From positions 1 to 62,748 of the forward strand of contig JBAQFO010000003.1 in NCBI GenBank assembly GCA_049287305.1: a DNA stretch of 62,748 nucleotides, in the 5' to 3' direction. The stretch is from Minisyncoccia bacterium. GTDB lineage: Bacteria; Patescibacteriota; Minisyncoccia; Phycocordibacterales; UBA9973. Numbering within the stretch: the stretch's first letter is position 1; the number at the start of each line of letters is the position of its first letter. This document shows, piece after piece, positions 1-55,422 of this stretch. Made by a program: the position numbers and the translations under genes. The notes beneath the pieces are model-generated. The model searched no databases. It saw nothing but the letters and a program-made list of their open reading frames with translations, and was not told the DNA's origin.

Positions 1-425
<425 letters not shown>

Positions 426-3965: not shown

Positions 3966-5744
3966 TTATTGCGCTTGATAATTTTTCGGTTCTAATTCGT
4001 GTTTTTTTCTTTTAGTCAGAAAGGCCGTGCTCATAAGTAATACTCCGATAGCTAGGAATGTCACTACTCTTCCGAAGAGTTCCATGTCCCACACATCTTT
4101 AAATACCAGCCTGATAACCACAAAGGCCAAGAGCGCCATGCCGTAAGTTCGGCGGGCCATATCGTTGCCATAGAGGCCGGAGAAGTAGGCCAGCAATCCG
4201 AAAATAGTAAATATAATGAGAGTAATCATCGTTGCAATGTCCTGTTCTCCTCTCATAGATATGTGGATGAACTGCCATAGAATATAACCAATATAAAATG
4301 TTCCAAGCACGATAAACATGGAGCCCAAATTTATTTCTCCTTCTTCTTTATTTGGAGTTTCAAGGTGATTTAAGATACGTCCGGCTGAAATTAGCGCAAC
4401 CGCGACGAGCAAGAGCGCGAAGAAGTCCGCACTCCATAACTCCGCGGAGTTCGCGTAACTCATCATGCTAGATACGGACAAAACCACGGGGAAAATAAAT
4501 ACCAAAGCCGCCCTACCTGCCGCTTTCGTATCTTTGGTAAGTGACAGCACACAAAGAAGGATGAGCAGCGCTTCCATAGCAAAAGCAATGACAAGCGATG
4601 CCCCGTCGAGCTCGGCTGAAGTCGCCGCGCCGATAAATGCGATGGCTACGGACCCATAAGCGTAAAAGGGTGCCAGCTTGGAGCTGAACTTGAATGCGGT
4701 AAACGAACCAAAGGCAAACACCACAGCCCATGCCGCAAATATCATTGAACTCCATTCCGCTGGAGCGACATTATAAATCCACATAAAGAGAAACAGTCCG
4801 TTCAAAACAGCGAGCACAATCTCGGTCTCTTGTTCTTGAACTCCTTTTTTGATAACCGCAAACATTCCGGAAAGAAGATATAACATAGAGAACAAGTAAG
4901 CGAAATTTAAAATTATCGGAGCGTCATTGCTGTATCGGGAGTTAAAATAAAAATCTCCCATATACGGAACGCTATACATTCCCACAAAAAACAAACTGAA
5001 AACAATAAGCTTCCGCCAACCGGTGATTCCCGCGAGGAACAAGGTAGCGATTGATATAAATAGCAGATAGGAGAAAAGGAATACGGCGTCTGTCTGTCCC
5101 GCCGTTAGTAGCGGAGCAACGAAAGCCAGTATTTGCGCGATATACGCGAGTTGTGGAAGTTTGAATTTATAACTTGCAAATGAAACGAAAGCTACAATCA
5201 CAAAATCAAACATGACAGCAGAGACAGGAGTGAAGAACTGGTAGATGGACCGGCCGGCAAATATGGTAAGCATGGCCATGCCTGCGCCGAGCGCCATAAA
5301 TACCGCCCCTTGCGACGGATGCTTCATCATTCGCTTGAAGCCAAGTGCCATTATTATTACTCCCGCCACAATACCGATAGAGATTCTTCCTACGGGACCT
5401 ATCCAATTATTTATGAAAGCATAAGAAACAAACCATCCGAACCCGATAATAAATAGTCCGGCGCCGAGTTTCATCAGCCAGTCTTCCTTAAGCCACAAAA
5501 AGAATTTGTTTGGCTCCGCGTTATTATATTGAACAGGTTGAATAGGTTGAATAGGCTGGTTATTGGAACTTGCCACGCCCGCTGTCTGCGGAATACTCTC
5601 TGCTATGCTTGTGGGTTCCGGCTTTCTTTCTATTCCTGTTGCGCTTATCCCCTGCCTTAATTCCAGTTCTCTTACCCGCCTTGAAAGAGAGCTGTTTGCT
5701 ACCAATAAGTAAACAATCAGACCGAACCCGAGTAGTGTTGTCAT
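3966..5744 (-). CDS. DUF2339 family polytopic membrane protein
   Basis: 592 aa with more than 15 hydrophobic spans, and a QPIQPIQPVQ linker after the first transmembrane helix. The layout is typical of DUF2339. Confidence 0.65.
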   Translation of the reverse strand: MTTLLGFGLIVYLLVANSSLSRRVRELELRQGISATGIERKPEPTSIAESIPQTAGVASSNNQPIQPIQPVQYNNAEPNKFFLWLKEDWLMKLGAGLFIIGFGWFVSYAFINNWIGPVGRISIGIVAGVIIMALGFKRMMKHPSQGAVFMALGAGMAMLTIFAGRSIYQFFTPVSAVMFDFVIVAFVSFASYKFKLPQLAYIAQILAFVAPLLTAGQTDAVFLFSYLLFISIATLFLAGITGWRKLIVFSLFFVGMYSVPYMGDFYFNSRYSNDAPIILNFAYLFSMLYLLSGMFAVIKKGVQEQETEIVLAVLNGLFLFMWIYNVAPAEWSSMIFAAWAVVFAFGSFTAFKFSSKLAPFYAYGSVAIAFIGAATSAELDGASLVIAFAMEALLILLCVLSLTKDTKAAGRAALVFIFPVVLSVSSMMSYANSAELWSADFFALLLVAVALISAGRILNHLETPNKEEGEINLGSMFIVLGTFYIGYILWQFIHISMRGEQDIATMITLIIFTIFGLLAYFSGLYGNDMARRTYGMALLAFVVIRLVFKDVWDMELFGRVVTFLAIGVLLMSTAFLTKRKKHELEPKNYQAQ

Positions 5745-10243: not shown

Positions 10244-10273
10244 CTATCCACTTTACTTAACTAAAGTGGATAG
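10244..10273. repeat. Hairpin palindrome family, copy B (perfect)
   Basis: CTATCCACTTTA-CTTAAC-TAAAGTGGATAG, with 12-bp perfect arms. Confidence 0.85.
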
Positions 10274-12387: not shown

Positions 12388-13584
12388 TTATTTACTCAAT
12401 ACGTTCCACACCGCAGGGTCTTCTTCACCATCTATTTTAAATATGGCCACGCCCTTGAGCCCGAGCTCTTGCGCTAGTTTTACTTTATCTTCTATTGCTT
12501 TAGAATCGCTCCATCTTATGAAATTGAAAGTTGTGGTTTGGCCCGTCTTGTTGGCATAGGCTAGAGCCTTTTGAGCTATCATGTCGCCCTCCGAAGTCCC
12601 CGCAGGCACGGTGAGTCCAGGTAGTGCAGCGATAAGAGCATTCCTCTCCGCGGTGCCATTTACGGGCAAGTAAGAAAAGCTAAGCTCCCCGGCTTTGTCC
12701 CGAAGCGGAGTGATGTCATAGGTCGCGGCCACATCCGTGGCATAAACATGATTTAAGGATTGAACCTTTTTATAATCCTTGAACCTGTTGGGTGAAACGG
12801 TCACTATATATTCTTGTCCGTAAGTAGCCACGCCGAGCATAATCTTTTTCTTCGGAATATCTTTCATGGCAAGCTCCGCCACTTTTCGGACCCAGTCTTT
12901 GTCGGCTACGGGAATATATGGAGACCCGGCTTTGGCGTCATTTAATTTTATGTCCGCCCGCCCTTGGTCATAGGCCATGATTTCCACTTCATCGCAATGT
13001 TTACCTATGGCTTTGAAGTCATTCGCGTATTGGATATCTGTCGGCACTACCCTATACAAAGAGTCGGGCGGGGTTCGCGCTTCTATGGCGCAAGAGAGAA
13101 TTTTGTTCTTACCCAATTCTTTTTTCAGTTCTTTCAAGAAAGTAGCAAAATCACTTTTGGTTTCGGCAAGCTTCGCCTCATAGTCTATATTCACGCCATC
13201 AAACTTTTCTTTCTTTACCATGTCCATTATGGCCTTGATATGCTTCTTGCGGAGAGTTTTATCGCTTAGGATGCGCTCAATGTCGGCTCCCTGTGACCAC
13301 ATGACCGTGGGCAATATATCCACATCTTTCTTTCTAGCCAGTTTAAAAAGGTTCTGCCAAGCGGTCTTCGCTGTTTTATCTGTCGCGTTTTTGCTTACTT
13401 TAGCCAAATCGTTCAGTGTCCCGTCTGCTTTTACCGAATATCCGAAAGGATGAAGAGTGTCGAGTGTGTCCAAATGATTCTCCGCATCTTTTGCCCCAGC
13501 GACAATAGTCCAATAAGGAATCCAGCCGGAAATTTCAAGTTCCTTGGAATTGTTTGTCTCAGCCGCCAGCGCCCACCCAAGCAA
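12388..13584 (-). CDS. Glycoside hydrolase family 18 protein (chitinase/YaaH-like)
   Basis: FDGVNIDYE catalytic motif. The ORF opens at a TTG only 8 codons before an ALA|AE-like site and overlaps the 3' end of the DUF262 gene. Confidence 0.75.
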   Translation of the reverse strand: MLGWALAAETNNSKELEISGWIPYWTIVAGAKDAENHLDTLDTLHPFGYSVKADGTLNDLAKVSKNATDKTAKTAWQNLFKLARKKDVDILPTVMWSQGADIERILSDKTLRKKHIKAIMDMVKKEKFDGVNIDYEAKLAETKSDFATFLKELKKELGKNKILSCAIEARTPPDSLYRVVPTDIQYANDFKAIGKHCDEVEIMAYDQGRADIKLNDAKAGSPYIPVADKDWVRKVAELAMKDIPKKKIMLGVATYGQEYIVTVSPNRFKDYKKVQSLNHVYATDVAATYDITPLRDKAGELSFSYLPVNGTAERNALIAALPGLTVPAGTSEGDMIAQKALAYANKTGQTTTFNFIRWSDSKAIEDKVKLAQELGLKGVAIFKIDGEEDPAVWNVLSK

Positions 13585-14263
13585 TTACATTTTGGAAATA
13601 TTTCCATAATTCTTCGGCACTCGCGTCATGTTGATGCTTAGCCATGTAATCTTCTATTTTTCCGTCGTTGATCCACGAAAGCGCTGCTTCTAAGTAATCT
13701 TGACGAATCACGGACCCAGTTAAGTAATCACTTCCTATGTTATAAGCTGGGCAATTAGATTTACTAAAATGCCTTTTTGCATCAGTAAGCCACTCTCCTG
13801 TGTAAATAGCATTCCGGAGCTCTTGATCTGCAAGCTTTAATCCCGCAATATTTATAGTTTTAAACCAGTCCAATTTTTCTTTGTCATCACCCTCACAAAA
13901 ATACACCATTAATTTATAATTAAGAATTTGGTTTTTTTCAGTTTCCTCAAGATTGTGAAAATACTGAAAATTAAGTGAGAAATTACCTGCCACATATTCA
14001 CAAATACTTATAGTTCTCTGTTGCCCATCCATTACTTCAAAAGTGCCATCTTCATTTTTAGCCCAATACATTACATTTAACGGAAAATTTTTTCTAGTAG
14101 TTTCAATAACTGCATCTCTTTGCTTATCTTTGTAAACGAATTCACGCTGATATTTTGGACGAATATTCAATCTTCCCCCATAGCCAACAACCCCTTCTTC
14201 GTTGTTGTTTATATATTTATTTGAAATTTCTTTAATTGTAATTTCTTTTAGTTGTATTTTCAT
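13559..14263 (-). CDS. DUF262 (ParB/GmrSD N-terminal-like) domain protein with no DUF1524/HNH half
   Basis: MDGQQRT motif and IRPKYQREFVY N-terminal motif. 234 aa. Confidence 0.75.
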   Translation of the reverse strand: MKIQLKEITIKEISNKYINNNEEGVVGYGGRLNIRPKYQREFVYKDKQRDAVIETTRKNFPLNVMYWAKNEDGTFEVMDGQQRTISICEYVAGNFSLNFQYFHNLEETEKNQILNYKLMVYFCEGDDKEKLDWFKTINIAGLKLADQELRNAIYTGEWLTDAKRHFSKSNCPAYNIGSDYLTGSVIRQDYLEAALSWINDGKIEDYMAKHQHDASAEELWKYFQNVIAWVGAGG

Positions 14264-14273
14264 TAGTTATTTT

Positions 14274-15257
14274 CTATATTCTCTTATTTTTAATAACAAC
14301 TCTAACATAACAAGGCTTTCCTTTGATTTGCGCTAAATACTTCCCCCTTGTTTCATTAGTTGGTCCAGACAAAATACTATAACGATTAAGTCCGTCTAAA
14401 ATTTCAAATTGATCAGGACTATACTTATCTAAAAATGTAATTGGGACACCAATCGCTTCTTTGTAGTCCATGGGGATATCCTTTGTTTTATCAACATTTA
14501 TAGCATCAAAGTGGTCATATTTAAGATATTCGTTCTCGTGCCCATAATACTTTCTATAAAGAATTAAATCGTCGTGGCGTTCCTTGTAATCTAGATTAGT
14601 AAACCAGCGAACACCGTTAACTCTTACGTATTGGTCACCTTTTTCATCTATTCTTTTACTAGGAGAATGCACAATATAATGTAAAGGTACTCTGAATTCT
14701 CTATCCCCGCTATGTATACTTTGCCCCAACCAAATTTTATTATCTTTTATTAGTTTAAAAATTTCTTTATAGGTAATAGCATTTTGGTTCCCAATAATTA
14801 TAAATTTCTTATTGTATTCAAATAGTTGCGCTACATACTCTCTAAATAAAGAGAAGGGAGGATTGGTAACAACTATGTCTGCCTCTTTTAAGATTTCCAC
14901 ACACTCAGGACTCCTAAAATCACCATTTTGTTTTAGGGGAGTCTTGACTGTATCTAATTTGTTTATCTTCCCATCTTTATTCATATCTTTCGTAATCTCT
15001 AATTTATATGATGGCTTTTCTGTTTCATAATGTGTAGAGATTAACTTTTTTAATCCAAGGTGTTCAAAGTTATCGGCAAAATATTTCCAAAAATGACTTT
15101 CCTCTGGGTCATCGCAATTACAAAATATAACTTTATTTTTCAGGTGGTTTTTGTAGTTCTTTAATTCTTTTTCAATATCAGAGAGTTGTGTGTAAAACTC
15201 GTCATTCTTGGCGGCGTCTGCTTTGCGTAAATTTTTATTTGATGATCTGTTGGCCAT
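14274..15257 (-). CDS. N6-adenine DNA methyltransferase, EcoRI-methylase family
   Basis: DEFYTQLSDIEKEL near the N-terminus and the IVVTNPPFS catalytic motif. The ATG at 15257 overlaps the upstream stop (TAATG). Confidence 0.8.
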   Translation of the reverse strand: MANRSSNKNLRKADAAKNDEFYTQLSDIEKELKNYKNHLKNKVIFCNCDDPEESHFWKYFADNFEHLGLKKLISTHYETEKPSYKLEITKDMNKDGKINKLDTVKTPLKQNGDFRSPECVEILKEADIVVTNPPFSLFREYVAQLFEYNKKFIIIGNQNAITYKEIFKLIKDNKIWLGQSIHSGDREFRVPLHYIVHSPSKRIDEKGDQYVRVNGVRWFTNLDYKERHDDLILYRKYYGHENEYLKYDHFDAINVDKTKDIPMDYKEAIGVPITFLDKYSPDQFEILDGLNRYSILSGPTNETRGKYLAQIKGKPCYVRVVIKNKRI

Positions 15258-15433
15258 TATTTCTTCCAATCCTTAACAACTAAAGTTTTGCCTTTGGAAG
15301 ATACGACGACCTTTTGCCCTTCCCTCCATTTGAACTTGCGGACTAAATCTATCGGCAACGTAACAGCAAGTGAAGCTTTGCCTACTTTTGTTATCTTTCT
15401 TATATTTGTTTGTCCGATTTTGCGGGTAGGCAT
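15257..15433 (-). CDS. AbrB/MazE/SpoVT-family DNA-binding protein, 58 aa (not in the ORF track)
   Basis: My own minus-strand translation is MPTRKIGQTNIRKITKVGKASLAVTLPIDLVRKFKWREGQKVVVSSKGKTLVVKDWKK. It shows the classic swapped-hairpin motif (VGKASLAVTLP...GQKVVV). Confidence 0.7.
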   Translation of the reverse strand: MPTRKIGQTNIRKITKVGKASLAVTLPIDLVRKFKWREGQKVVVSSKGKTLVVKDWKK

Positions 15434-15439
15434 GTAAGT

Positions 15440-15459
15440 AATGTATTACGTACATTCTA
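15440..15459 (-). promoter_or_regulatory. Inverted repeat overlapping the -10 box of the AbrB-methylase operon (candidate operator)
   Basis: AATGTA (15440-15445), 5 nt, then TACATT (15451-15456). The minus-strand -10 box TAGAAT lies at 15459-15454. Confidence 0.4.
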
Positions 15460-15508
15460 TCCCTAAAAGAACCAAAAAACAAACCCTTTTTATACAACAC
15501 ATCCAACT

Positions 15509-15536
15509 TTGATAGGAGCAGAAATTAGTGTACAAT
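15509..15536 (+). promoter_or_regulatory. Promoter of the second methyltransferase
   Basis: TTGATA (15509-15514), a 16-nt spacer, then TACAAT (15531-15536), 25 nt before the ATG at 15562. Confidence 0.55.
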
Positions 15537-15561
15537 ATGGGCAGGAAGTCAAAAATCTCAG

Positions 15562-16707
15562 ATGAAAAAGCAAACCACCAAAAGCAAACAAGAAATTTTA
15601 GGGCAATATTTCACGAAAACTGAAGTGGTAGACAAGCTGCTTAACATTCTTTTTACCTATAAAAAATATAGTAAGAAATCTTCGCTTCTGGAACCTTCTT
15701 TCGGAACAGGTAATTTTATTAAAAACCTCAAAAAAAGAGGCTTCCAGAACATAGAGGGATATGAAATTGACCCAGAGCTAACGAAGGACCCGGTGGACTT
15801 TTTCACTGTGCCGACCAAGCACAAGTTTGATTTAATAGTTGGCAATCCCCCTTTCACCAAATATAACCTTGAGGAAAGCTACTATCACGCTTCCCAATAC
15901 CTCTTATCCGAAGTGAGCCCCTTGGACTATCTGAGTTCAAAAGATATAAAAAGCGACAAGCAAAAAATCGAGAACGCTTTCCTATTAAAATCCCTGAAGC
16001 ATCTGAAAAATGACGAATCCAGCATTGCGTTCATTCTCCCCGTTTCTTTTTTCATCAAAAACAAAAACAAAGACCTGAAAGAAAAGCTACTAACCAAATT
16101 TTCAACTATTATCATTTACCAAAACGACCAAGTCTGGTTCGATAGAAACATTCCTTGCTGTTTTGCTATTTTTTCCAACATTAAAAGCTTTAAAAATAAA
16201 ATTGTCGTCCTTTACGAAAACGGAAACAAGGGCGAAGACATTTTTGATATTTCCAACATTCACGAAGAGCTCATCCCCCAGGTAATCTTTAACAAAAATC
16301 ACGGACTTATCAATAACGAAAGAGGAGTCCCTTTACGGGAATATCTAGCGGAAAAGAATATTAAGGCCAAGAAATCATTTAGCCACAACAGCGTTTCGGC
16401 TAAAAATATCCTAGCCATGAGCAAAATCCCAAAGGAATCCAATATTTCCGATTACAAAATGGCCGTAGTGAGGGTGGGTAACTCAAGCGTCGGAAAATGC
16501 GGACTGGTAAACATAAAAGAAGACGTGTTGAACGACATGTTTTACGTTTTTGATTTTAAAGCAGAATATAATCAGAATAAAAGGCTGAAAGAAGAAATCT
16601 GCAAGAGCATAAACAAGAACATAGATTATTTCAAAAATATCACTTGCCGAGTAGGCAGTAAATCCATAAAGAAAGAAAACGTATACGACTTCAGGGTGGA
16701 AATCTAG
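15562..16707 (+). CDS. N6-adenine DNA methyltransferase, gamma class (TaqI/Eco57I-like)
   Basis: Motif I LEPSFGTGNF precedes motif IV VGNPPFTKY. The C-terminal ~180 aa would be the target-recognition domain. Confidence 0.8.
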   Translation: MKKQTTKSKQEILGQYFTKTEVVDKLLNILFTYKKYSKKSSLLEPSFGTGNFIKNLKKRGFQNIEGYEIDPELTKDPVDFFTVPTKHKFDLIVGNPPFTKYNLEESYYHASQYLLSEVSPLDYLSSKDIKSDKQKIENAFLLKSLKHLKNDESSIAFILPVSFFIKNKNKDLKEKLLTKFSTIIIYQNDQVWFDRNIPCCFAIFSNIKSFKNKIVVLYENGNKGEDIFDISNIHEELIPQVIFNKNHGLINNERGVPLREYLAEKNIKAKKSFSHNSVSAKNILAMSKIPKESNISDYKMAVVRVGNSSVGKCGLVNIKEDVLNDMFYVFDFKAEYNQNKRLKEEICKSINKNIDYFKNITCRVGSKSIKKENVYDFRVEI

Positions 16708-17948: not shown

Positions 17949-18809
17949 CTACGCTGTCTTGCTTTCGATTTTGGTAAGCCCAGAGAGCACTTCTCCGAAC
18001 GACTTAAGCTTCACGAGAAGCGGGATAGCTTGATTAGCCTGTGCAACTTCTTTGAGTTCTTTCTGCTGGTCCACCAGGGAGGCAAGCAATTTGCGGAATA
18101 TTTTGTCTTTTTTACCCATATCATTTTCCGAAAGTCCCTGATTGAGCTCATCCAGTTCCGATTCCTCCAACCCTAAATAAAACACAGGAATATTTTCCAA
18201 ATGCGCCCGCTTTAACTTCTTTTTCTTGAATCCCAACCCATAACGTATCTCTGCTCCCCCTTTTTTAGCTATCTTAAGAATTTTTTCCTTTTTTTCTTCG
18301 GCGCGGGTGCTACCGTGGACTTCATCAAATGCTCCGACAACTTCTCCTGTGGCTCTGTTTACTATCAAGTTGTCCACCCCATTTTCATAATCGTCATAAG
18401 GCGCCGTTCGCACCACCAAGAAATCTTTCCCCAGCATTTGAGAAAGGAGCACGGTCACCGCCATCTCCATCTGTCCGCTTTTCTGGCGGGATTTGCCTTC
18501 CTGCCATTTCCGAATCATGTCGTTTTCATTTTCTACCCCAGGTTGGCCTCTGTAAAATTCCGAAAACTTAACTTCAGTTTTTCGGACCACCTCTGCATCC
18601 GCCGCAAGTTCGCTTTCATTATATACATCTTTGTATCCACTTGGGTCTAGGGCTCCGTCAGAAGTAAGCAAGCCCTCCAGGCCCGATTCTTTTAACCTTG
18701 CATTTATTTCATCGGACTGGGCCCGAAGCATCTCCATAAGCATCTCGGTTGGATGCTTTTTCTTTTCTATCGTTGGCTTTATTCCCGATTGCGGTTCAAA
18801 CTGGTTCAT
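17949..18809 (-). CDS. Hypothetical protein
   Basis: 286 aa, charged and cytoplasmic-looking. No domain was recognised. Confidence 0.55.
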   Translation of the reverse strand: MNQFEPQSGIKPTIEKKKHPTEMLMEMLRAQSDEINARLKESGLEGLLTSDGALDPSGYKDVYNESELAADAEVVRKTEVKFSEFYRGQPGVENENDMIRKWQEGKSRQKSGQMEMAVTVLLSQMLGKDFLVVRTAPYDDYENGVDNLIVNRATGEVVGAFDEVHGSTRAEEKKEKILKIAKKGGAEIRYGLGFKKKKLKRAHLENIPVFYLGLEESELDELNQGLSENDMGKKDKIFRKLLASLVDQQKELKEVAQANQAIPLLVKLKSFGEVLSGLTKIESKTA

Positions 18810-18892
18810 AAAATATTCGTTAGAATTATAGGCTTATGATACTCCCCGCGGAGAATTAATCAACTAGTGCCCCAATCCCAAACTCAATATAA

Positions 18893-18930
18893 AAAAGAAA
18901 ACCGCCTCGGGGGGGTGCGCGAGGCGTTTC
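18893..18930 (-). terminator. Intrinsic terminator of 18950-19339
   Basis: The minus strand reads AAACGCCTCG-loop-CGAGGCGGTTT followed by TCTTTTTT. Confidence 0.65.
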
Positions 18931-18949
18931 CCTTTTGAAGCGGTGATAA

Positions 18950-19339
18950 CTAATGGAGCATCTTGGAGGATACCCCGAGGAGCAGCGTGGCGAGAAGAGC
19001 GTAGAACGTCCCCTTGGCCGCGAGCCAATGCCCGAGAGGCAGGAAGAGCGACGTGGTCTTCATCTGGTTCGACTGGTGGAGCTTCCACCCTAGGAAGCCT
19101 GTAGCGAACAGACAGAGGAAGAAGATTCCTCCGACCACGAGATGTGTGATATACAGAGCGCTGAAACTTTCCTGTTGCGCCCCGCGGATGGCCACGAGGA
19201 CCATCAGCACCACTCCCCAGAACATCGCGATGACTCCCCCCGCCCGATGTCGCCGGCCTCCAAGCTCCGGCACATACATCTGATGCAGAAGCACCAGAAG
19301 AACAACCCCCGAGACCACCCGAAGTCCGATGTCTACCAT
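18950..19339 (-). CDS. Four-TM membrane protein of unknown function (GC-rich cassette 2)
   Basis: 129 aa with four hydrophobic spans. Line 19141-19200 is 57% GC by hand count. Confidence 0.55.
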   Translation of the reverse strand: MVDIGLRVVSGVVLLVLLHQMYVPELGGRRHRAGGVIAMFWGVVLMVLVAIRGAQQESFSALYITHLVVGGIFFLCLFATGFLGWKLHQSNQMKTTSLFLPLGHWLAAKGTFYALLATLLLGVSSKMLH

Positions 19340-19421
19340 AGGCGCACTCTGTCCTTTCGTAAAAAGTTGATGGAAAAAGCTAAACCGAGTTCACCTTACC
19401 ACACTTCATCACAAAATCAAC

Positions 19422-19453
19422 TTACTCCACTTTACTTAACTAAAGTGGAGTAA
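19422..19453. repeat. Hairpin palindrome family, copy D (perfect)
   Basis: TTACTCCACTTTA-CTTAAC-TAAAGTGGAGTAA, with 13-bp perfect arms. Confidence 0.85.
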
Positions 19454-19903: not shown

Positions 19904-19933
19904 CTTTCCACTTTATTTAACTAAAGTGGAAAG
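19904..19933. repeat. Hairpin palindrome family, copy E (perfect)
   Basis: CTTTCCACTTTA-TTTAAC-TAAAGTGGAAAG, with 12-bp perfect arms. Confidence 0.85.
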
Positions 19934-25979: not shown

Positions 25980-26002
25980 AAGAGAATTATATTACAAGTG
26001 GC

Positions 26003-26125
26003 ACAAATAGAAAAGACCTCAAGAGAAGCATTGCTTTTCTATGAGGTCTTTAGCGGGACCTCTCGGTCCGCGATTGATGATGTTTCAAAACTTCCGGAGC
26101 AGGGCGGGGATGAAACCCGCCCTGC
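26003..26125 (-). terminator. Two strong hairpins downstream of GC-rich cassette 3
   Basis: GCAGGGCGGG-N7-CCCGCCCTGC lies at 26099-26125. AAGACCTCA...TGAGGTCTT lies at 26013-26050 and is followed by TTTTCTATTT on the minus strand. Confidence 0.6.
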
Positions 26126-26140
26126 GTCTCCCAGTCAACG

Positions 26141-26542
26141 TTACTCGCTGGCTGGGCCCGGTGCTCCCAGATCACGTACTTCCTGCGGAAGCCCGGGATA
26201 CTGGTACAACGGACAGGTGGCGATCAACTTCGGGCCATTGTTCGGATCCGGAGTGTTCCACCACAGCCGGGCGCCCGTGCTCCTGGGCTCATCTTTGTGA
26301 TTCAACCACCCACGGTAACGAAAGGTGTCAACGACGCCGTCCTCACCGACAGCACGCACGTACACGTAACGGGTGTGGTCGTGAAAGTAGTTGAAGACCT
26401 CACAGTCCCCAACCCGCACCGCCTTCGGTGATTCTGTTACCTTGGGTGTGTCCGAGACGAGGTTGAACCTCTCCGCCTGGACACCGCTGGCAACCGCGAA
26501 CGAGAGGACGGTGAGAACGCACAGCGTGAACAGATTCTTCAT
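26141..26542 (-). CDS. Secreted protein of unknown function (GC-rich cassette 3)
   Basis: Trimmed to the ATG at 26542, with GGAGA upstream. Signal peptide MKNLFTLCVLTVLSFAVASGVQA. Confidence 0.6.
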   Translation of the reverse strand: MKNLFTLCVLTVLSFAVASGVQAERFNLVSDTPKVTESPKAVRVGDCEVFNYFHDHTRYVYVRAVGEDGVVDTFRYRGWLNHKDEPRSTGARLWWNTPDPNNGPKLIATCPLYQYPGLPQEVRDLGAPGPASE

Positions 26543-26603
26543 AGCTTTCAATTTCTCCGTGATGCGGTAGTCTGTGCCGCACCCCACGTTGTTGTTGTGG
26601 AAA

Positions 26604-27455
26604 TTACAGAGCAATGGGACGACCGCATTTGAGACAGGGAGCCTCTTTGTGGAGGACGACCGCGTCATCGCAGTCGCACTCCTCTTCGCCGATGGCCTCC
26701 AGGGCTTCCTCGAACGAAGAGGCGGCGATTTCCTTGCGGAAAATTCGCCACACAAGAAGCAAGCTCAGTCCCGCAACTCCCACCGATGTGTAGAGATTGC
26801 CAAAACCAAGCACTGCCTCTGACAAAGAAAGCACTCCGAACCCTCCAATGACGGAGAGCTCAACATGCTTACCCCAGAAGAACCAGGTGGCCATCTGCTC
26901 GACCGACTGGAACTTCTTCCTCCGAAGGAGGCGGGCGATGACGAGAGCGGCCTGAGCCACTACCGCCACAGTGAGTCCCGCAATCGCGAACGACAGGACA
27001 ACCTCAAGGGTCGTCCAGCGCCCGGCAATTGCTTGGGCGGCTTTCGCTGGTCCGCTCCAGAGAGCGTCCCAGCTCACCGCGAGAATTGCGATGAAACGAC
27101 GGGAGTCATCCTCCCGAAGCCCCATCACTCGCGACAGCCAGGCCGAGATGCCGAAGACCGCTTCTTTCCCCGCGGCTTCGCATACAACTTCGTATACGAA
27201 AGCAAAGACAAAAGCGAATCCGACGATTCCGAGAACCGGCGAAAGAAAAGCGAACTGCTTCCCCAGCCCCCAGAACATGTAGTACCCCACCGCTGGAAAA
27301 ACGATGTGGGTCGACATGATGGGAAGTGTCCAGTTTGTCATCCGCATTGAGCGGTCGCGAAACTTGGACACCGTCGCGATCGAAACATCAATCGCGATTC
27401 CGAGCCCCATGAGCACGGAAGGAACCCAAAAACCGAAAAAATCAAACTGATTCAC
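26604..27455 (-). CDS. Polytopic membrane protein (GC-rich cassette 3) with a weak MntP/DUF204-like two-repeat pattern
   Basis: GTG start preceded by GAGGAGG. GIAIDVSIATVSKF and LAVSWDALWSG resemble the two Asp-containing DUF204 repeats. The C-terminal tail is CDCDD...CLKCG. The functional call is weak. Confidence 0.55.
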   Translation of the reverse strand: MNQFDFFGFWVPSVLMGLGIAIDVSIATVSKFRDRSMRMTNWTLPIMSTHIVFPAVGYYMFWGLGKQFAFLSPVLGIVGFAFVFAFVYEVVCEAAGKEAVFGISAWLSRVMGLREDDSRRFIAILAVSWDALWSGPAKAAQAIAGRWTTLEVVLSFAIAGLTVAVVAQAALVIARLLRRKKFQSVEQMATWFFWGKHVELSVIGGFGVLSLSEAVLGFGNLYTSVGVAGLSLLLVWRIFRKEIAASSFEEALEAIGEEECDCDDAVVLHKEAPCLKCGRPIAL

Positions 27456-27507
27456 AGTGCCTCCTCAGGGTGTGAATGCCAGATTTTAACCTGGCGGTTT
27501 ATTGTCT

Positions 27508-33401: not shown

Positions 33402-33422
33402 AACTTGCAATAAGTATATACT
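33395..33422 (+). promoter_or_regulatory. Strong sigma70-type promoter for the DUF4430 operon
   Basis: TTGACA (33395-33400), a 16-nt spacer, then TATACT (33417-33422). This implies a ~230-nt 5' UTR. Confidence 0.6.
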
Positions 33423-33429
33423 AAAAGAG

Positions 33430-33661
33430 TTCTTCTTAAAAATTTAGAGAAGTGATTGGGGAAACTGGTGACCTGCCTCGCGCTCATGCGCGAGTCAAGG
33501 CGGGAATTCCAGTACAGTGCCGCTACGGTAAGCCCTGCGTTTAATCGCAAGGACAAGTCCGACTACCAATCATTTAATGTTTAGTCCCGAGCAGGATAAT
33601 CCTTCATCATTGTATTTTGAAGGCCCCACAATTCTGCTCCAAAGGCGGATTTTTTTATTTT
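33430..33661 (+). promoter_or_regulatory. Structured 5' leader, a candidate riboswitch (cobalamin-like motifs, unconfirmed)
   Basis: Nested stems are TGATTGG (33453-33459)/CCAATCA (33566-33572), ACTGG (33464)/CCAGT (33509), CCTGCC (33472)/GGCGGG (33499) and the hairpin TCGCGC-TCAT-GCGCGA. GGGAA and CCGCTACGGTAA (33520-33531) resemble the cobalamin riboswitch core. Confidence 0.4.
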
Positions 33662-46950: not shown

Positions 46951-47751
46951 TTAATTTATTTTCAATATATCCTTTTTAAAATGCTTCAGGTAAGCGACTA
47001 AAATGAAGCTTATTATAACCATCAAAAACCATGAGGTTATTTTTTGAGTGGAGACAACGGTCCAGGTGTGAATTTGGTCGGGATATTTCCAGGCACCCAG
47101 AGCGGTGGATATATTTTCAGCAACCCATATAAAAAATGCGATAAGAATAAATCCCAGATTTAACGGCATGAATCGAGGGATATTCGTCACCGTAAAATAA
47201 ACTCTGGTCTTCCAAAAGAAAATAAAAACGAAAGCTATCAAAAATGTTCTGAAATCGTAAATATAGTGATTAGTGAAAAAATTTACATAAATTAGCAAGC
47301 ACAGAAAAACACTTAGCAGGTAATGTTTGTAGTTCGTTAGTTCGAGTTTAAATATTTTCCACGCTTGGCTGATATAGCTTCCGACAGCCGCATACATGAA
47401 TCCGCTATATAACGGCACGGTGGCAATTTTGAAAAATCCGCTTTCGGGATAACTCCAGGAGCCAACTCCGGGACTTGTTTTATAGAGCTCCAGCACCAGC
47501 CCAATAAAATGGAACAACAAAATAACTTTCACTTCGTCTTTAGTTTCTAGTTTTGTGAAGTAAAGCACTGCTTGTATTAAGACAGCGGCTAGAAAAAGAA
47601 AATCATAACGCGCCAGCCCAAAAAGAGGGATGTGATTGGAAATGAAAAGAAGAACAAAAAACGACCCCGCAAATATTGCCGCTCGGGCCTGCTTGAAACC
47701 GAAAACCAAAAATTCTTTTCCCCATAATTTTAGTAAGTTTGTTAAATTCAT
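46951..47751 (-). CDS. DUF817 family integral membrane protein
   Basis: Trimmed to the ATG at 47751. FGFKQARAAIFAG...ARYDFLFLAAVLIQ...LLFHFIGLVLELYKT...GSWSYPE...PLYSGFMYAAVGSY. Confidence 0.75.
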   Translation of the reverse strand: MNLTNLLKLWGKEFLVFGFKQARAAIFAGSFFVLLFISNHIPLFGLARYDFLFLAAVLIQAVLYFTKLETKDEVKVILLFHFIGLVLELYKTSPGVGSWSYPESGFFKIATVPLYSGFMYAAVGSYISQAWKIFKLELTNYKHYLLSVFLCLLIYVNFFTNHYIYDFRTFLIAFVFIFFWKTRVYFTVTNIPRFMPLNLGFILIAFFIWVAENISTALGAWKYPDQIHTWTVVSTQKITSWFLMVIISFILVAYLKHFKKDILKIN

Positions 47752-47764
47752 GAATATTTTCGGA

Positions 47765-47823
47765 GCAAGATATCGGGGCTCAATCCGCCAGACTCTTATT
47801 GCTAATTTTCTATACAAGGCTGG
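47765..47823. repeat. 59-bp direct repeat, left copy (attL-like)
   Basis: Matches 49266-49324 at 58 of 59 positions (A at 47772 versus G at 49273). Confidence 0.9.
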
Positions 47824-47951
47824 CCTCATCGGTCGTAAAGTCCGAGACCTTGCCCCACAAGGGCAGTTTGGCTGATTTCATTTTACCATAACGACGCTCC
47901 TCGGAACGACTAAAAAGCGACAAATGCGACACTAACCCCACCCCGCAATGC

Positions 47952-47980
47952 TGGACAGAACAGCGAGTTTATGTTAAAAT
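47952..47980 (+). promoter_or_regulatory. Promoter of the island two-gene cassette
   Basis: TGGACA (47952-47957), a 17-nt spacer, then TAAAAT (47975-47980). Confidence 0.45.
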
Positions 47981-48000
47981 AATCTATGAAAGGGGGGCTT

Positions 48001-48372
48001 ATGGCCTCATTGAAAACAGAAGACGTCCAACGCTTTAAAGGCGGACGGATTCAAATCGAAAACGCAAACGAGGGTCATCTCTACTATGGGCAAGTGGAGA
48101 CGATTCACGTCGACGAAGGCGACGGCGAAAAGATGCTGGTGATCACGTTCACTTGGCTGGCGGAAGGCCAGGGGTACCCGCCGACTGCCCGTAAGTGGGT
48201 GGTCAAGCGTGATCTTCTCACCTACGACGCCAACCTGGAAATCTACCAGGTCAAGACGACCAGCAGTCACTGCATCACTCTCACTTCATGGATGAACGTG
48301 GATGAAGTGACGCTCCATGTGCCCAGCTGTGCAATCATCCCACTTAACCCCTCCGACGTCGAGGGTCTGTAA
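48001..48372 (+). CDS. Hypothetical protein, 123 aa (GC-rich island gene A)
   Basis: The ATG at 48001 is preceded by AAAGGGGGG. No family was recognised. Confidence 0.6.
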   Translation: MASLKTEDVQRFKGGRIQIENANEGHLYYGQVETIHVDEGDGEKMLVITFTWLAEGQGYPPTARKWVVKRDLLTYDANLEIYQVKTTSSHCITLTSWMNVDEVTLHVPSCAIIPLNPSDVEGL

Positions 48373-48423
48373 GTGCAAGTCGCGTAAGTCAACCAACAAC
48401 CAACTTTCAACAGGAGGTCTCCG

Positions 48424-48672
48424 ATGCAGGGAAGCAAGCAACAACTGCGTATCCATGCCCAAGGTTCTGTGGTTGCGGACGGTACTTTGTCTGACATCGT
48501 CACGAAGGTCCTCGAAGGTGTCGGTGGCACCATTGCCGGAACCGATGTCACCACTGTCATCGTGTATGTCGAAGTCGACATTCCCGATGGTGCCCCCAGG
48601 AAGAAGCTGAATCCGGACATTGCACGGCTCCGCAAAGAGCTCGGTCGCAATGTCACCGCAATCCACTTCTAA
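48424..48672 (+). CDS. Hypothetical protein, 82 aa (GC-rich island gene B)
   Basis: The ATG is preceded by AGGAGG at -11. No family was recognised. Confidence 0.6.
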   Translation: MQGSKQQLRIHAQGSVVADGTLSDIVTKVLEGVGGTIAGTDVTTVIVYVEVDIPDGAPRKKLNPDIARLRKELGRNVTAIHF

Positions 48673-48790
48673 CGGTGCAACTCCGATGCGGGCGGCAAAC
48701 ACTCCGCCGTGAGTTGACCGGCGGAGTGGAGCTCATGAGTTCTTTAAAAATCGTGTTAGTAAAACGCGAACCTTATAGGGTTCCGTATGA

Positions 48791-48831
48791 GCCCTGTGAG
48801 TAAAAGAACTCTCGCAGGGCTTTTTCTTTTT
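48791..48831 (+). terminator. Intrinsic terminator of the island cassette
   Basis: GCCCTGTGAG-N10-CTCGCAGGGC followed by TTTTTCTTTTT. Confidence 0.75.
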
Positions 48832-48864
48832 CAATTTACACTATTGACAGATGTGGATAACTCG

Positions 48865-48894
48865 TTGCATTGTTTTTTACGATCATGATATAAT
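48865..48894 (+). promoter_or_regulatory. Promoter for the candidate ncRNA
   Basis: TTGCAT (48865-48870), an 18-nt spacer, then an extended -10 box TGATATAAT (48886-48894). A perfect DnaA-box 9-mer TGTGGATAA lies at 48852-48860 just upstream. Confidence 0.45.
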
Positions 48895-48899
48895 ACTCA

Positions 48900-49123
48900 C
48901 AGTTCTTTTCATGAAAAAAGTTTACACCTTACTCTCTTCGGAGAGCAGATAGTCCCGACCGAAAGGCCACTGTGTCAAAAAAATTTCTAGAGGGGTTATC
49001 GTAAGGATTACGCATTAAAGTTATAAGTTGTGGGGTCACCGCACTAAAAAATAATTTAGAACAGATCGTAATCAAGGCTTAATAAACATTCGACCGTTTA
49101 TTGACTCTTGATTGCGATTTTTT
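48900..49123 (+). ncRNA. Candidate ~220-nt non-coding RNA of unknown class
   Basis: It lies between the promoter above and a long hairpin with a T-run (ATCGTAATCAAG 49065-49076 / CTTGATTGCGAT 49107-49118, then TTTTT). It includes a CTCTC-TTCG-GAGAG tetraloop hairpin (48933-48946). The only ORF is 13 codons long. Confidence 0.35.
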
Positions 49124-49265
49124 GGTAATTAGACAAAAAATCAAATCTAGTGAAAAGAACTAAATTATTAATTAGTAATTTAGTTCTGTATGAAAAACAA
49201 AAAATTGGTTTGGGTAACGGAGAAGAGGTGTGTGAAAGATTTACTGCCGTTCAAGCAAAATCCTC

Positions 49266-49324
49266 GCAAGATGTCGGGGCTCAATCCGCCAGACTCTTAT
49301 TGCTAATTTTCTATACAAGGCTGG
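49266..49324. repeat. 59-bp direct repeat, right copy (attR-like), overlapping the tRNA-Gln 3' end by 4 nt
   Basis: See 47765-47823. Confidence 0.9.
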
Positions 49325-49391
49325 GAGACTAGGATTCGAACCTAGATAATATCCTCCAGAGGGATATGTCCTACCATTAGACGATCTCCCA
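49321..49391 (-). tRNA. tRNA-Gln (anticodon CUG)
   Basis: The reverse complement is TGGGAGA-TC-GTC..GAC-A-TATCC-CTCTGGA-GGATA-TTAT-CTAGG-TTCGAAT-CCTAG-TCTCCCA-G. U1:A72 and G73 match bacterial tRNA-Gln. Confidence 0.9.
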
Positions 49392-49541
49392 GCTTTGAAT
49401 ACAAAACAACAGCAATTTATTTCCCTCAGCCTCGCCCGTAGGCTACGGCCGAAGGACAACCTCGCAGTATTTTTGACTTATTCTCCTAAACTTAGCATAC
49501 TCTGCCTAGAATACAAAGAAGATATTTGATATAATGGCGAA

Positions 49542-54569: not shown

Positions 54570-54639
54570 ATTTTAAGTAAATTTTTTAGTGCTGCGCGGG
54601 GGGAGAGATGGGGTCACCTCTCCTCCCGCTAGCGCCTGA

Positions 54640-55422
54640 TCACGCTGCCGTAATTCTAAACAGCGTGTATTTCTGGTGGAAGTAGTTGTGCTGTCCAACT
54701 ACTTTGATGCTAGGAAGCAGCCCTGGCACTGCTTCATTCATTTCAAACTCAAGCCCGGCAAAAAGCTCTTCGTCTGTCCAGGGAATGGTGTGCCTCCACT
54801 CTACTGTGCCCTCGGGATTGTCTTCCCCGCGAGCATGTATGATGAAGGCTACTCGGCGAGAGAACGGAGGCGTGGCTAGAAAATTCCCCAACCACCGCAT
54901 CATGAGCCACTTACGATCGCCTGTCTCGTTTTGGAAAATCTGGCTCGCGATGATGACGTTGGTCTTTTTCGGGTTTATTTTTCTGCTCGCCCAAGCGTTC
55001 AAGATGTCGGCTTGCCTTACCGTCACCTTGCCGGCGAGACCTTCCTCTTCGACGAACTCGGTAGCATTTTTACACGCTACCGTGCTGCAATCAGTGATGG
55101 CAACAGAGTGCCCTTTAGCAACTGCTTTTGGGACTAACTTCTTACCGTCTCTGCCCAACCCCCACCCAAAATACTCAATGTGCCCAGGTTTTATCTTGCG
55201 AACTTCCTGCCAGAGTTTCTGACCCCACCGTCTCTCCCAGCGCTCGTTTTCCCACGCATAGTATGCAGGGTTGACGAGTCCTTTTTCCAGAAGGTCTTTT
55301 GGGGCCAGAGGATATGGATTTTCGTCGCTTGGGCTAAGCGCGAAATCCCAGTTGTAATCCAAAACCTGAAACATACTCTGATTCATGTCCTGGCTCAATG
55401 CGATTCCACGACTTAGCGTCAA
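54640..55422 (-). CDS. Putative class I SAM-dependent methyltransferase-fold protein (moderately GC-rich cassette 5)
   Basis: The TTG start at 55422 lies 6 nt after AAGGAGG. FGWGLGRDG (motif I-like), AITDCS and RQADIL. The functional call is weak. Confidence 0.5.
   Translation of the reverse strand: MTLSRGIALSQDMNQSMFQVLDYNWDFALSPSDENPYPLAPKDLLEKGLVNPAYYAWENERWERRWGQKLWQEVRKIKPGHIEYFGWGLGRDGKKLVPKAVAKGHSVAITDCSTVACKNATEFVEEEGLAGKVTVRQADILNAWASRKINPKKTNVIIASQIFQNETGDRKWLMMRWLGNFLATPPFSRRVAFIIHARGEDNPEGTVEWRHTIPWTDEELFAGLEFEMNEAVPGLLPSIKVVGQHNYFHQKYTLFRITAA

Follow-up and report, generated by a model that had tools for sequence, protein, structure and literature searches.

A 62,748-bp stretch of a Minisyncoccia genome (GenBank assembly GCA_049287305.1, contig JBAQFO010000003.1; hereafter the window) carries, between a tRNA-Gln(CUG) gene and a gene for a DUF817 membrane protein, a 1.44-kb segment enclosed by two 59-nt direct repeats. 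Comparison with related genomes indicates that this segment is an insertion into an ancestral arrangement of tRNA-Gln, a short spacer and DUF817, and that the repeat is the native tRNA-Gln trailer, of chromosomal origin, the body of the tRNA not having been duplicated. The cargo reads as a GC-rich operon of two open reading frames (ORFs) with its own predicted promoter and terminator. Judged by its sequence relatives, ORF1 is not an orphan and belongs to an undescribed, horizontally mobile family of ~120-aa proteins specific to the Candidate Phyla Radiation (CPR), whose genes, in the genomes compared, recur as small GC-rich islets devoid of a recombinase. With modest confidence, we regard the insert as a recombinase-less cassette resembling a cis-mobilizable element (CIME), placed in the tRNA-Gln trailer at a Paceibacteria hotspot by reciprocal recombination, with the catalyst supplied in trans.

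The insert and its borders

The direct repeat had been pointed out in an earlier inspection of the DNA carried out without database searches (the sequence-only reading), and a repeat search of the window recovered it as described: the two copies match at 58 of 59 positions (98% identity) at a spacing of 1501, with a sole mismatch at repeat position 8, which is A at 47772 and G at 49273. An exact block of 51 nt (47773-47823 and 49274-49324) is common to both copies and is the only repeat of at least 25 nt in the window, the runner-up being a 24-nt palindrome, and the full repeat is more than twice as long as any other. This uniqueness and length within the window exclude a chance origin. The two anchors given for the repeat also proved correct. 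The right copy runs into the minus-strand tRNA-Gln gene, which Rfam (63.1 bits) places at 49321-49391 and ARAGORN at 49319-49391, so that this copy takes in the last 4 (or 6) nucleotides of the tRNA together with 53-55 nt of trailer. The left copy stands directly upstream of the DUF817 ORF, which starts at 47751, 13 nt away, and is supported by Pfam (PF05675, E 3.6e-94).

With regard to the nature of the repeat, the sequence-only reading, which had recognized the attL/attR geometry of a tRNA-targeting element, holds in part. The insertion is indeed bounded by repeats, but these are copies of the native trailer rather than of the tRNA 3' end. The tRNA-proximal 24 nt of the repeat are homologous to the tRNA-Gln trailer of a relative, L011 (z 6.9; alignment A1), while the remainder aligns more weakly, and it is this homology that argues for a chromosomal sequence and against one borne by the element. 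Similarity between the repeat and the tRNA-Gln body is not significant (p 0.27), and neither the insert nor its immediate neighbourhood holds any further tRNA-Gln fragment. At the one position where the copies differ, the left, DUF817-proximal copy shares its base with the L011 trailer (alignment A1). This pattern is weak but consistent with a Campbell-type crossover, in which the left copy would be chromosomal at its DUF817 end and the right copy would owe the end next to the insert to the element. The predicted fold of the 59-nt repeat does not exceed that of shuffled sequence on either strand (z +0.3 and +1.2), and an Rfam scan of 47600-49500 at a lenient threshold gave the tRNA as its sole match. 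The trailer was also considered as a decayed pseudo-tRNA-Gln, a candidate that was set aside, since the similarity is significant only in the relative L045 (p < 0.0005), not in the window (p 0.27) or in L011 (p 0.15); it amounts to no more than a hint.

The compositional contrast noted in the sequence-only reading is likewise real. The GC-rich part, ~1 kb at 53-57% GC against ~40% in the host, extends from 47824 to ~48830, with 52-57.5% GC in 200-nt windows between 48000 and 48800, as compared with 31-44% in most flanking windows and 42.7% in the entire window, and the repeat copies coincide exactly with the borders of the anomaly. ORF1 and ORF2 have 54% and 55% GC, respectively, and their GC content at third codon positions (GC3), 68% and 61%, is foreign to the host, seven genes of which have a GC3 of 35-47%. 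The expression signals that had been read into the cargo have their counterparts in a promoter-like site, a hairpin followed by a U-run (Table 1) and Shine-Dalgarno-like purine-rich motifs, GGGGGG and AGGAGG, upstream of the ATG codons of ORF1 and ORF2. No recombinase, transposase or replication domain was detected in ORF1 and ORF2 with Pfam, PHROGs and PADLOC or, with Pfam, in any further small ORF between the repeats, which agrees with the earlier report that integrase, excisionase, transposase and replication genes are missing. Moreover, the insert shows no inverted repeat linking its two ends and no microhomology at its junctions.

Downstream of the operon, the ~430 bp that had been characterized as AT-rich, repeat-dense and non-coding are AT-rich and, by ORF listing and Pfam, non-coding, but only mildly repeat-dense. 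The motif TAATTTAGWWCT, three copies of which cluster in 49052-49187, is not more frequent than expected by chance in the window. This tail matches no Rfam family and has no similarity to any of the fetched loci. Its host-like composition suggests that the backbone of the cassette has resided in AT-rich CPR genomes and that the GC-rich operon is a later payload, and its 32-nt palindrome could stop read-through from tRNA-Gln. A small RNA between an extended -10 element at ~48885 and the hairpin at 49063 was dropped as a candidate, as its body folds like shuffled sequence (z 0.28).

Table 1. Coordinates of the insert, its components and its two anchor genes in the window
Feature	Position	Strand	Basis or remark
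DUF817 membrane-protein gene	46951..47751	-	Pfam PF05675; conserved right-hand anchor of the hotspot
Left repeat copy, DUF817-proximal, A at 47772	47765..47823		Repeat search
Insert	47824..49265		1,442 bp; with one repeat copy, a 1,501-bp unit
Sigma-70-like promoter, TGGACA-17-TAAAAT with TG upstream	47952..47980	+	Consensus match only, 10/12; candidate for ORF1-ORF2
ORF1, 123 aa	48001..48372	+	Unannotated CPR small-protein family
ORF2, 82 aa, near-orphan	48424..48672	+	One relative, L003
GC-rich hairpin directly 3' of ORF2	48700..48728	+	Inverted repeat CACTCCGCCG / CGGCGGAGTG; kept in L003
Predicted intrinsic terminator of the ORF1-ORF2 operon	48789..48832	+	12-bp stem and U-run; -21.1 kcal/mol, z -4.5
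AT-rich non-coding tail	48833..49265		29-44% GC, host-like
Nested hairpin (58 nt) and T-run, terminator-like	49063..49123	+	-26.1 kcal/mol, z -6.8
32-nt palindrome	49156..49187		z -2.8; UUUUC follows on the minus strand
Right repeat copy, tRNA-proximal, G at 49273	49266..49324		Repeat search
tRNA-Gln(CUG), left-hand anchor of the hotspot	49321..49391	-	Rfam, ARAGORN

The interval and the ORF1 family in other genomes

A scan of GTDB species genomes for DUF817 provided the relatives used for comparison, namely the best 80 of 459, nearly all of them metagenome-assembled genomes (MAGs) of CPR bacteria of the Paceibacteria/Nomurabacteria type, whose DUF817 proteins are at most 89% identical to that of the window. 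Eighteen related loci have a tRNA-Gln on the DUF817 strand and upstream of that gene, at distances from 5 nt to 5.5 kb; the tRNA-Gln of one of these relatives, L010, is 94% identical to that of the window. Empty-like sites are found in L018, L010 and L021, where the gap measures 5-13 nt, and in L045, where it measures 69 nt and the spacer is a recognizable pseudo-tRNA-Gln (p < 0.0005). With a single repeat copy, the gap in the window would be 68 nt, and the ancestral order proposed in the sequence-only reading, in which tRNA-Gln was followed by one repeat and then by DUF817, is supported by these sites. In L010 and L021, DUF817 begins with MKEFL directly after tRNA-Gln.

The rest of these 18 loci have gaps of 0.4-5.5 kb that are occupied by unrelated genes, including AbiTii (L015), a KAP-family NTPase (L030), Schlafen/AlbA_2 (L043), NUDIX (L022) and a methyltransferase-like gene (L023), and partial copies of the tRNA-Gln 3' end occur within the gaps of L023 (19 nt), L025 (17 nt) and L022 (15 nt). 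Homologues of ORF1 are lacking in all 80 related DUF817 loci, and by a crude test no integrase was seen at the site in the 18 relatives. The short gaps in some relatives and the varied cargo in others argue that the interval is a recurrent insertion site and that the content of the window is a lineage-specific insertion. An identical arrangement in all relatives combined with native codon usage of the inner genes, which the sequence-only reading had named as evidence that would speak against an insertion, is not what the relatives and the GC3 values show.

As regards single intervals, L023 holds a 774-nt methyltransferase-like single-gene unit between 19-nt tRNA-end repeats. Across L008-L059, the intervals contain defence-type genes and single-gene units bounded by tRNA-end repeats, with no integrase visible.

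The arrangement in relatives bears on the expression of DUF817 as well. In L010 and L021, where DUF817 follows tRNA-Gln by 7-13 nt, there is no room for a promoter, so that the gene is likely to be transcribed together with the tRNA. The window has 1.5 kb between the two genes, with transcription running the other way and a terminator-like palindrome on the minus strand, and no minus-strand promoter-like site was found directly upstream of DUF817. The insertion probably uncouples DUF817 from tRNA-Gln, and expression of DUF817 may have changed as a result.

Both inner proteins had been singled out for comparison with databases, which yielded for ORF1 a conserved CPR family recurring in similar islets and no match in phage and plasmid collections. 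While ORF1 was seemingly an orphan in a word-indexed search, a full HMMER scan returned 138 remote homologues, mostly of 115-130 aa. A profile search with the family returned 113 proteins, for which the source gives only the name 'hypothetical protein' and, where organisms are named, Patescibacteria or Paceibacterota MAGs. The family is characterized by the motifs GGQxEIQN, EGYLYRGEI, W(L)AKGEGYPP..P..WV and LDPSxVEGL and by the invariant residues G15, G30, W52 and W66 (alignment A2). ORF1 matches multiple members by phmmer with E values of 1e-10 to 1e-16, and the profile derived from A2 scores it at E 6.9e-45, a value that is partly circular because ORF1 is itself a row of A2. No relative of the family was found in Pfam, NCBIfam, PHROG (E <= 0.01) or PDB, and ORF1 has no PADLOC match. 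In addition, the family is absent from INPHARED and PLSDB by tblastn with one member and from IMG/VR by a clade-profile scan, and the whole 1.5-kb unit has no blastn match among INPHARED phages and PLSDB plasmids. A single-sequence AlphaFold2 model of ORF1 is all-beta, with a mean predicted local distance difference test score (pLDDT) of 47, which is too low for use.

ORF2 has a sole relative, a 54-aa fragment with 92% identity on L003, a 520-bp contig of 62% GC from another metagenome. DNA homology to L003 (91% identity) spans only 48517-48726 of the window. Over 51 codons, 10 synonymous changes stand against 4 non-synonymous ones, indicating that ORF2 is a real coding sequence, and the end of homology inside ORF2, at window position 48517, implies that it has alternative N-termini in the two contexts. 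The AlphaFold2 model of ORF2, with a beta-alpha-beta-alpha-beta order and a pLDDT of 64.5, is too weak for use, and Foldseek returned no match at E <= 0.001. On L003, a 68-aa cysteine-rich ORF (32-238, minus strand) with only weak zinc-ribbon matches lies upstream of the ORF2 relative.

The genomic context of ORF1-family genes was surveyed at eight independent loci, seven of which have enough upstream sequence for tRNA scoring. At seven of the eight, the gene lies ~9-26 GC points above its flanks, as exemplified by L088, where a gene of 63% GC resides in a 40% genome; L096 is the only locus of native composition and is tightly packed between housekeeping genes. At three of the seven scorable loci, the gene is situated no more than 350 nt downstream of a tRNA, which is tRNA-Gln in the window, tRNA-Ala in L088/L089/L090 and tRNA-Leu in L094. 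On our assumption of ~45 tRNAs per 1-Mb genome, ~1.6% of a genome lies that close downstream of a tRNA, and three of seven by chance would have a probability on the order of 1e-4, a rough estimate. No recombinase gene appeared among the called genes and Pfam labels of the ORF1-family islets examined. As for the neighbourhood of L094, an HNH endonuclease gene (4209-4718; weak Pfam HNH and HNH_3 matches) is located there between tRNA-Cys and the tRNA-Leu that precedes the cassette.

Several of these loci show how the cassettes are bordered. The tRNA-Ala trailer (~65 nt) occurs on both sides of the cassette in L089, in two copies that have diverged and are distinguished by a swapped hairpin; ahead of the cassette stands a 19-nt copy of the 3' end of tRNA-Ala. 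L088 has flanks nearly identical to those of L089 and is without exactly 148 nt between 19-nt copies of the tRNA-Ala 3' end (GAATCTCCTCGGGTCCAC; L088 4795-4813 versus L089 4647-4813), a difference showing that, in CPR populations in nature, DNA is precisely gained or lost at repeats of this type. On either side of the L095 cassette stands a copy of the 15-nt repeat GGTCTTTTGTGTTCT, which equals the tail of the upstream terminator and whose right copy restores the TTGACA of the downstream promoter. At four of the eight loci, no flanking repeats were found. Furthermore, members of a 128-aa clade share 72-89% protein identity and 74-86% DNA identity in unrelated chromosomal contexts, with DNA similarity limited to the ORF, a terminator region of ~90 nt and, in one pair, ~100 nt of promoter. 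Similarity of this kind in unrelated surroundings argues that the gene moves horizontally.

Origin of the insert

According to the reading favoured here, a circular 1,501-bp unit carrying one 59-bp copy of the trailer would have met the same sequence in the chromosome, in the trailer that separates tRNA-Gln from DUF817, and Campbell-type reciprocal recombination between the two would have left one trailer copy at each side of the insert. The catalyst would have come from outside the cassette, either as a site-specific recombinase provided in trans by the host or by a helper element, or, alternatively, as the host homologous recombination machinery acting on the 51-59 bp of identity. The same repeats would permit precise loss of the cassette. 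We favour this reading because a unique repeat with 58/59 identity bounds the anomaly exactly, because relatives display empty-like sites and a hotspot, and because the repeat is native trailer while the cargo has foreign GC3. The recurrence of recombinase-less ORF1 islets, the mobility of the 128-aa clade and the precise 148-nt polymorphism between L088 and L089 speak for it as well.

Several observations weigh against such an origin. Neither an excised circle nor a same-species empty site nor a trans-acting recombinase was observed. Exact-pattern scans of JGI metagenome contigs and IMG/VR with the repeat core and an ORF2 3' motif returned no match, and a crude regular expression, the only means used, found no tyrosine-recombinase signature in the window or in ~100 fetched loci. 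Nearly all of the identity block falls beyond the tRNA gene, an unusual position for an integrase that targets tRNAs. Between ORF1 islets, the non-coding parts are not conserved, so that there is no common att-like sequence to imply one dedicated recombinase. Finally, repeats of local sequence at three loci (59, ~65 and 15 nt) could mean that the duplication was made at insertion.

The insert might instead be the remnant of a larger tRNA-Gln-targeting island or prophage that lost its integrase and most of its cargo by internal deletion. Integrase-type events at this locus are evidenced by the tRNA-Gln 3'-end copies and the pseudo-tRNA of relatives, the host-like AT-rich tail could be residual backbone, and CIMEs have been described as arising by such loss (PMC5704250). 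However, an integrase fragment is detectable in none of the frames of the insert, nor was an integrase seen in the crude test of the hotspot in 18 relatives; the repeats, identical at 58/59 positions, leave little elapsed time for decay; and all other ORF1 islets examined are also small and recombinase-free, which fits poorly with independent decay each time. We therefore consider a decayed island unlikely.

A duplication made at insertion is the subject of a second alternative, in which the 59-bp repeat would be a target-site duplication produced by homology-independent insertion, for instance when a staggered break is repaired or when the template is switched at a tRNA or terminator structure. 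ORF1-family cassettes would then enter behind structured RNA ends and give rise to duplications that differ in length. It would account for the fact that local sequence after a tRNA or terminator is repeated in the window, L089 and L095 alike, where a foreign cassette is not expected to carry beforehand the trailer proper to every locus. No known bacterial process gives duplications that vary from 15 to 65 nt, though, and the L089 trailer copies with their swapped hairpin resemble two alleles rather than a fresh duplication; the window junctions lack microhomology, and half of the eight family loci have no repeat at all. Hence, this explanation is quite improbable.

It is also conceivable that the integrated arrangement was created by the assembler, which would have threaded a separate 1.5-kb circle into a chromosome with an empty site through the 51-59 bp that they share. 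The Logan unitig L001 (1,510 bp, k=31, SRR28062879) corresponds letter for letter to 47794-49303 of the window: it spans the insert and reaches, at either end, k-1 bases into the 51-nt block. The graph thus branches there, with a topology that fits both forms. For this reason, the 1,510-bp sequence was rejected as evidence of a circular form: its ends are those expected of a k=31 unitig bounded by a 51-nt repeat and are uninformative on circle versus integrated. The organism is also present in SRR28062869 (L007), in which no contig bearing the insert proteins is recorded. Against an artefact, a repeat of 51 nt is shorter than the read length and than the usual final k, and the region is 100% identical in contig JBAQNI010000018.1 (GCA_049303715.1), at coordinates offset by 346 nt. 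As this contig and the window have different ends, at least two assembled contigs hold the integrated arrangement. An assembly loop is very improbable, and even then there would have to be a genuine element with the trailer sequence, so that the biology would be little changed. Hardly tenable, finally, is a native arrangement of two resident genes with the repeat as a local duplication of regulatory or structural role: the family member L096 is indeed native in composition and packed between housekeeping genes, but ORF1 is missing from all 80 related DUF817 loci, its GC3 and that of ORF2 are foreign, the repeat has neither a predicted fold nor an Rfam match, and the tRNA abuts DUF817 in relatives.

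Beyond the CIME-like reading of this one insert, a broader proposal may be formulated, to which we give rather little credence. ORF1 cassettes could constitute a distinct class of mini-elements of CPR/Patescibacteria, 0.6-1.5 kb in size, with one or two genes and no recombinase, that would insert after tRNAs or terminators, gain 15-65-nt repeats of the local trailer, stay GC-rich and spread without an enzyme of their own, for example by DNA uptake and host recombination or with a helper integrase. The small beta-protein would then be the payload or a targeting/addiction factor.

The genomes of CPR bacteria are tiny and streamlined, and how these bacteria acquire genes is poorly known. Although the insert is a fairly ordinary kind of genomic islet, two points add to its interest, namely the undescribed mobile small-protein family and the position of the repeat in the tRNA trailer. 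The locus offers a clean, recent insertion with both junctions intact, a conserved tRNA-Gln/DUF817 hotspot that gathers defence-type genes across Paceibacteria, and a small-protein family that travels among CPR bacteria in the form of GC-rich islets, frequently with a tRNA alongside. Should the cassette excise and re-integrate without its own enzyme, it would serve as a simple model of CPR gene flow that lends itself to testing; otherwise, it is one more decayed islet.

Elsewhere in the window, other features deserve mention. A second GC-rich islet of 1.4 kb (26000-27460, 55-62% GC) has AT-rich, housekeeping-like neighbours and contains two genes on the minus strand (204 and 283 aa), the second of which resembles a multi-pass membrane protein; this islet at 26.0-27.5 kb was considered and rejected as a unit with the architecture of the insert, having no long flanking direct repeat. 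Short GC-rich patches occur at 700-1300, 18800-19400 and 54600-55100 (up to 66%, 59% and 54% GC, respectively). The first overlaps a minus-strand ORF (895-1383, 162 aa, apparently secreted) just upstream of the 16S rRNA gene (5' end 428), and the second overlaps another (18950-19339, 129 aa, apparently a membrane protein). The contig seems to be peppered with small GC-rich acquisitions. The 24-nt palindrome TCCACTTTAYTTAACTAAAGTGGA, present in three copies (10247-10270, 19426-19449 and 19907-19930), may be a shared terminator or an element similar to repetitive extragenic palindromes. A cobalamin riboswitch at 33409-33588 (Rfam 36.8 bits, above the gathering threshold) would not be expected in a CPR genome of reduced size; a B12-related transporter may lie downstream of it. 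The region 13559-16707 resembles, from translations only, a restriction-modification or DNA-modification cluster, with a ParB/DUF262-like KYQREFVY protein and methyltransferase-like ORFs.

Comparison with known systems

Two classes of mobile DNA were considered and rejected. An insertion sequence or miniature inverted-repeat transposable element does not agree with the absence of terminal inverted repeats and of a transposase from the insert or with a duplication of 59 nt, and a prophage or phage satellite does not agree with the lack of matches in PHROG (E <= 0.01), INPHARED (blastn and tblastn) and IMG/VR. Integrative mobile elements exploiting Xer (IMEX) are alike in that they integrate without encoding a recombinase, via host XerCD, but their target is the dif site, whereas the insert of the window lies in a tRNA trailer; no dif-like sequence was noticed, though no search aimed at it was made.

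Integron gene cassettes are also small units of one or two genes without their own recombinase, and they move in trans as circles. Unlike their attC site, once called the '59-base element', the repeat in the window lacks an imperfect-palindrome fold (z +0.3, +1.2) and is homologous to the native trailer; moreover, the cassette has its own predicted promoter, and no integron integrase or cassette array is found nearby. The shared number 59 is a coincidence.

Hotspots between core genes, which are often beside tRNAs, offer a closer parallel, as the tRNA-Gln/DUF817 interval varies from 5 nt to several kb and harbours AbiTii, KAP NTPase and Schlafen-like genes with no mobile-element gene visible. 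Homologous exchange via the flanking core genes alone, however, does not yield a 59-bp direct repeat around the insert. With islands and prophages that target tRNA genes by a tyrosine integrase, the insert has in common that it lies 3' of a tRNA gene, that the direct repeat around it measures tens of bp and that its composition is atypical, and relatives carry partial tRNA 3'-end copies at the same locus. In classical islands of this type, the identity block runs from the anticodon loop or the T-loop to the 3' end of the tRNA. In contrast, the repeat of the window holds only 4-6 nucleotides of the tRNA and does not rebuild its 3' part, and the insert has no integrase, excisionase or remnant of either.

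The nearest counterpart is the CIME, the cis-mobilizable element of the systems formed in Firmicutes by integrative conjugative elements (ICEs) together with integrative mobilizable elements (IMEs), which retains attL and attR while integration genes are absent (PMC5704250). The insert is distinguished from CIMEs by its CPR host, for which no related ICE, IME or integrase is known, by its size of only 1.5 kb, and by the position of its repeat in the tRNA trailer instead of the 3' end of the gene. A cognate integrase-bearing element, from which a CIME derives and which can mobilize it through the same att sites, was found neither in the window or the 80 related loci, by a crude test, nor in phage, plasmid, viral and metagenome collections. 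The likeness, on the other hand, covers two of the three defining aspects of these elements, the cognate element being the third: by Pfam, PHROGs and PADLOC the insert has no integration, excision or transfer genes of its own and would need a recombinase in trans, and it is bordered beside a tRNA by direct repeats in attL/attR geometry, in a segment that relatives do without.

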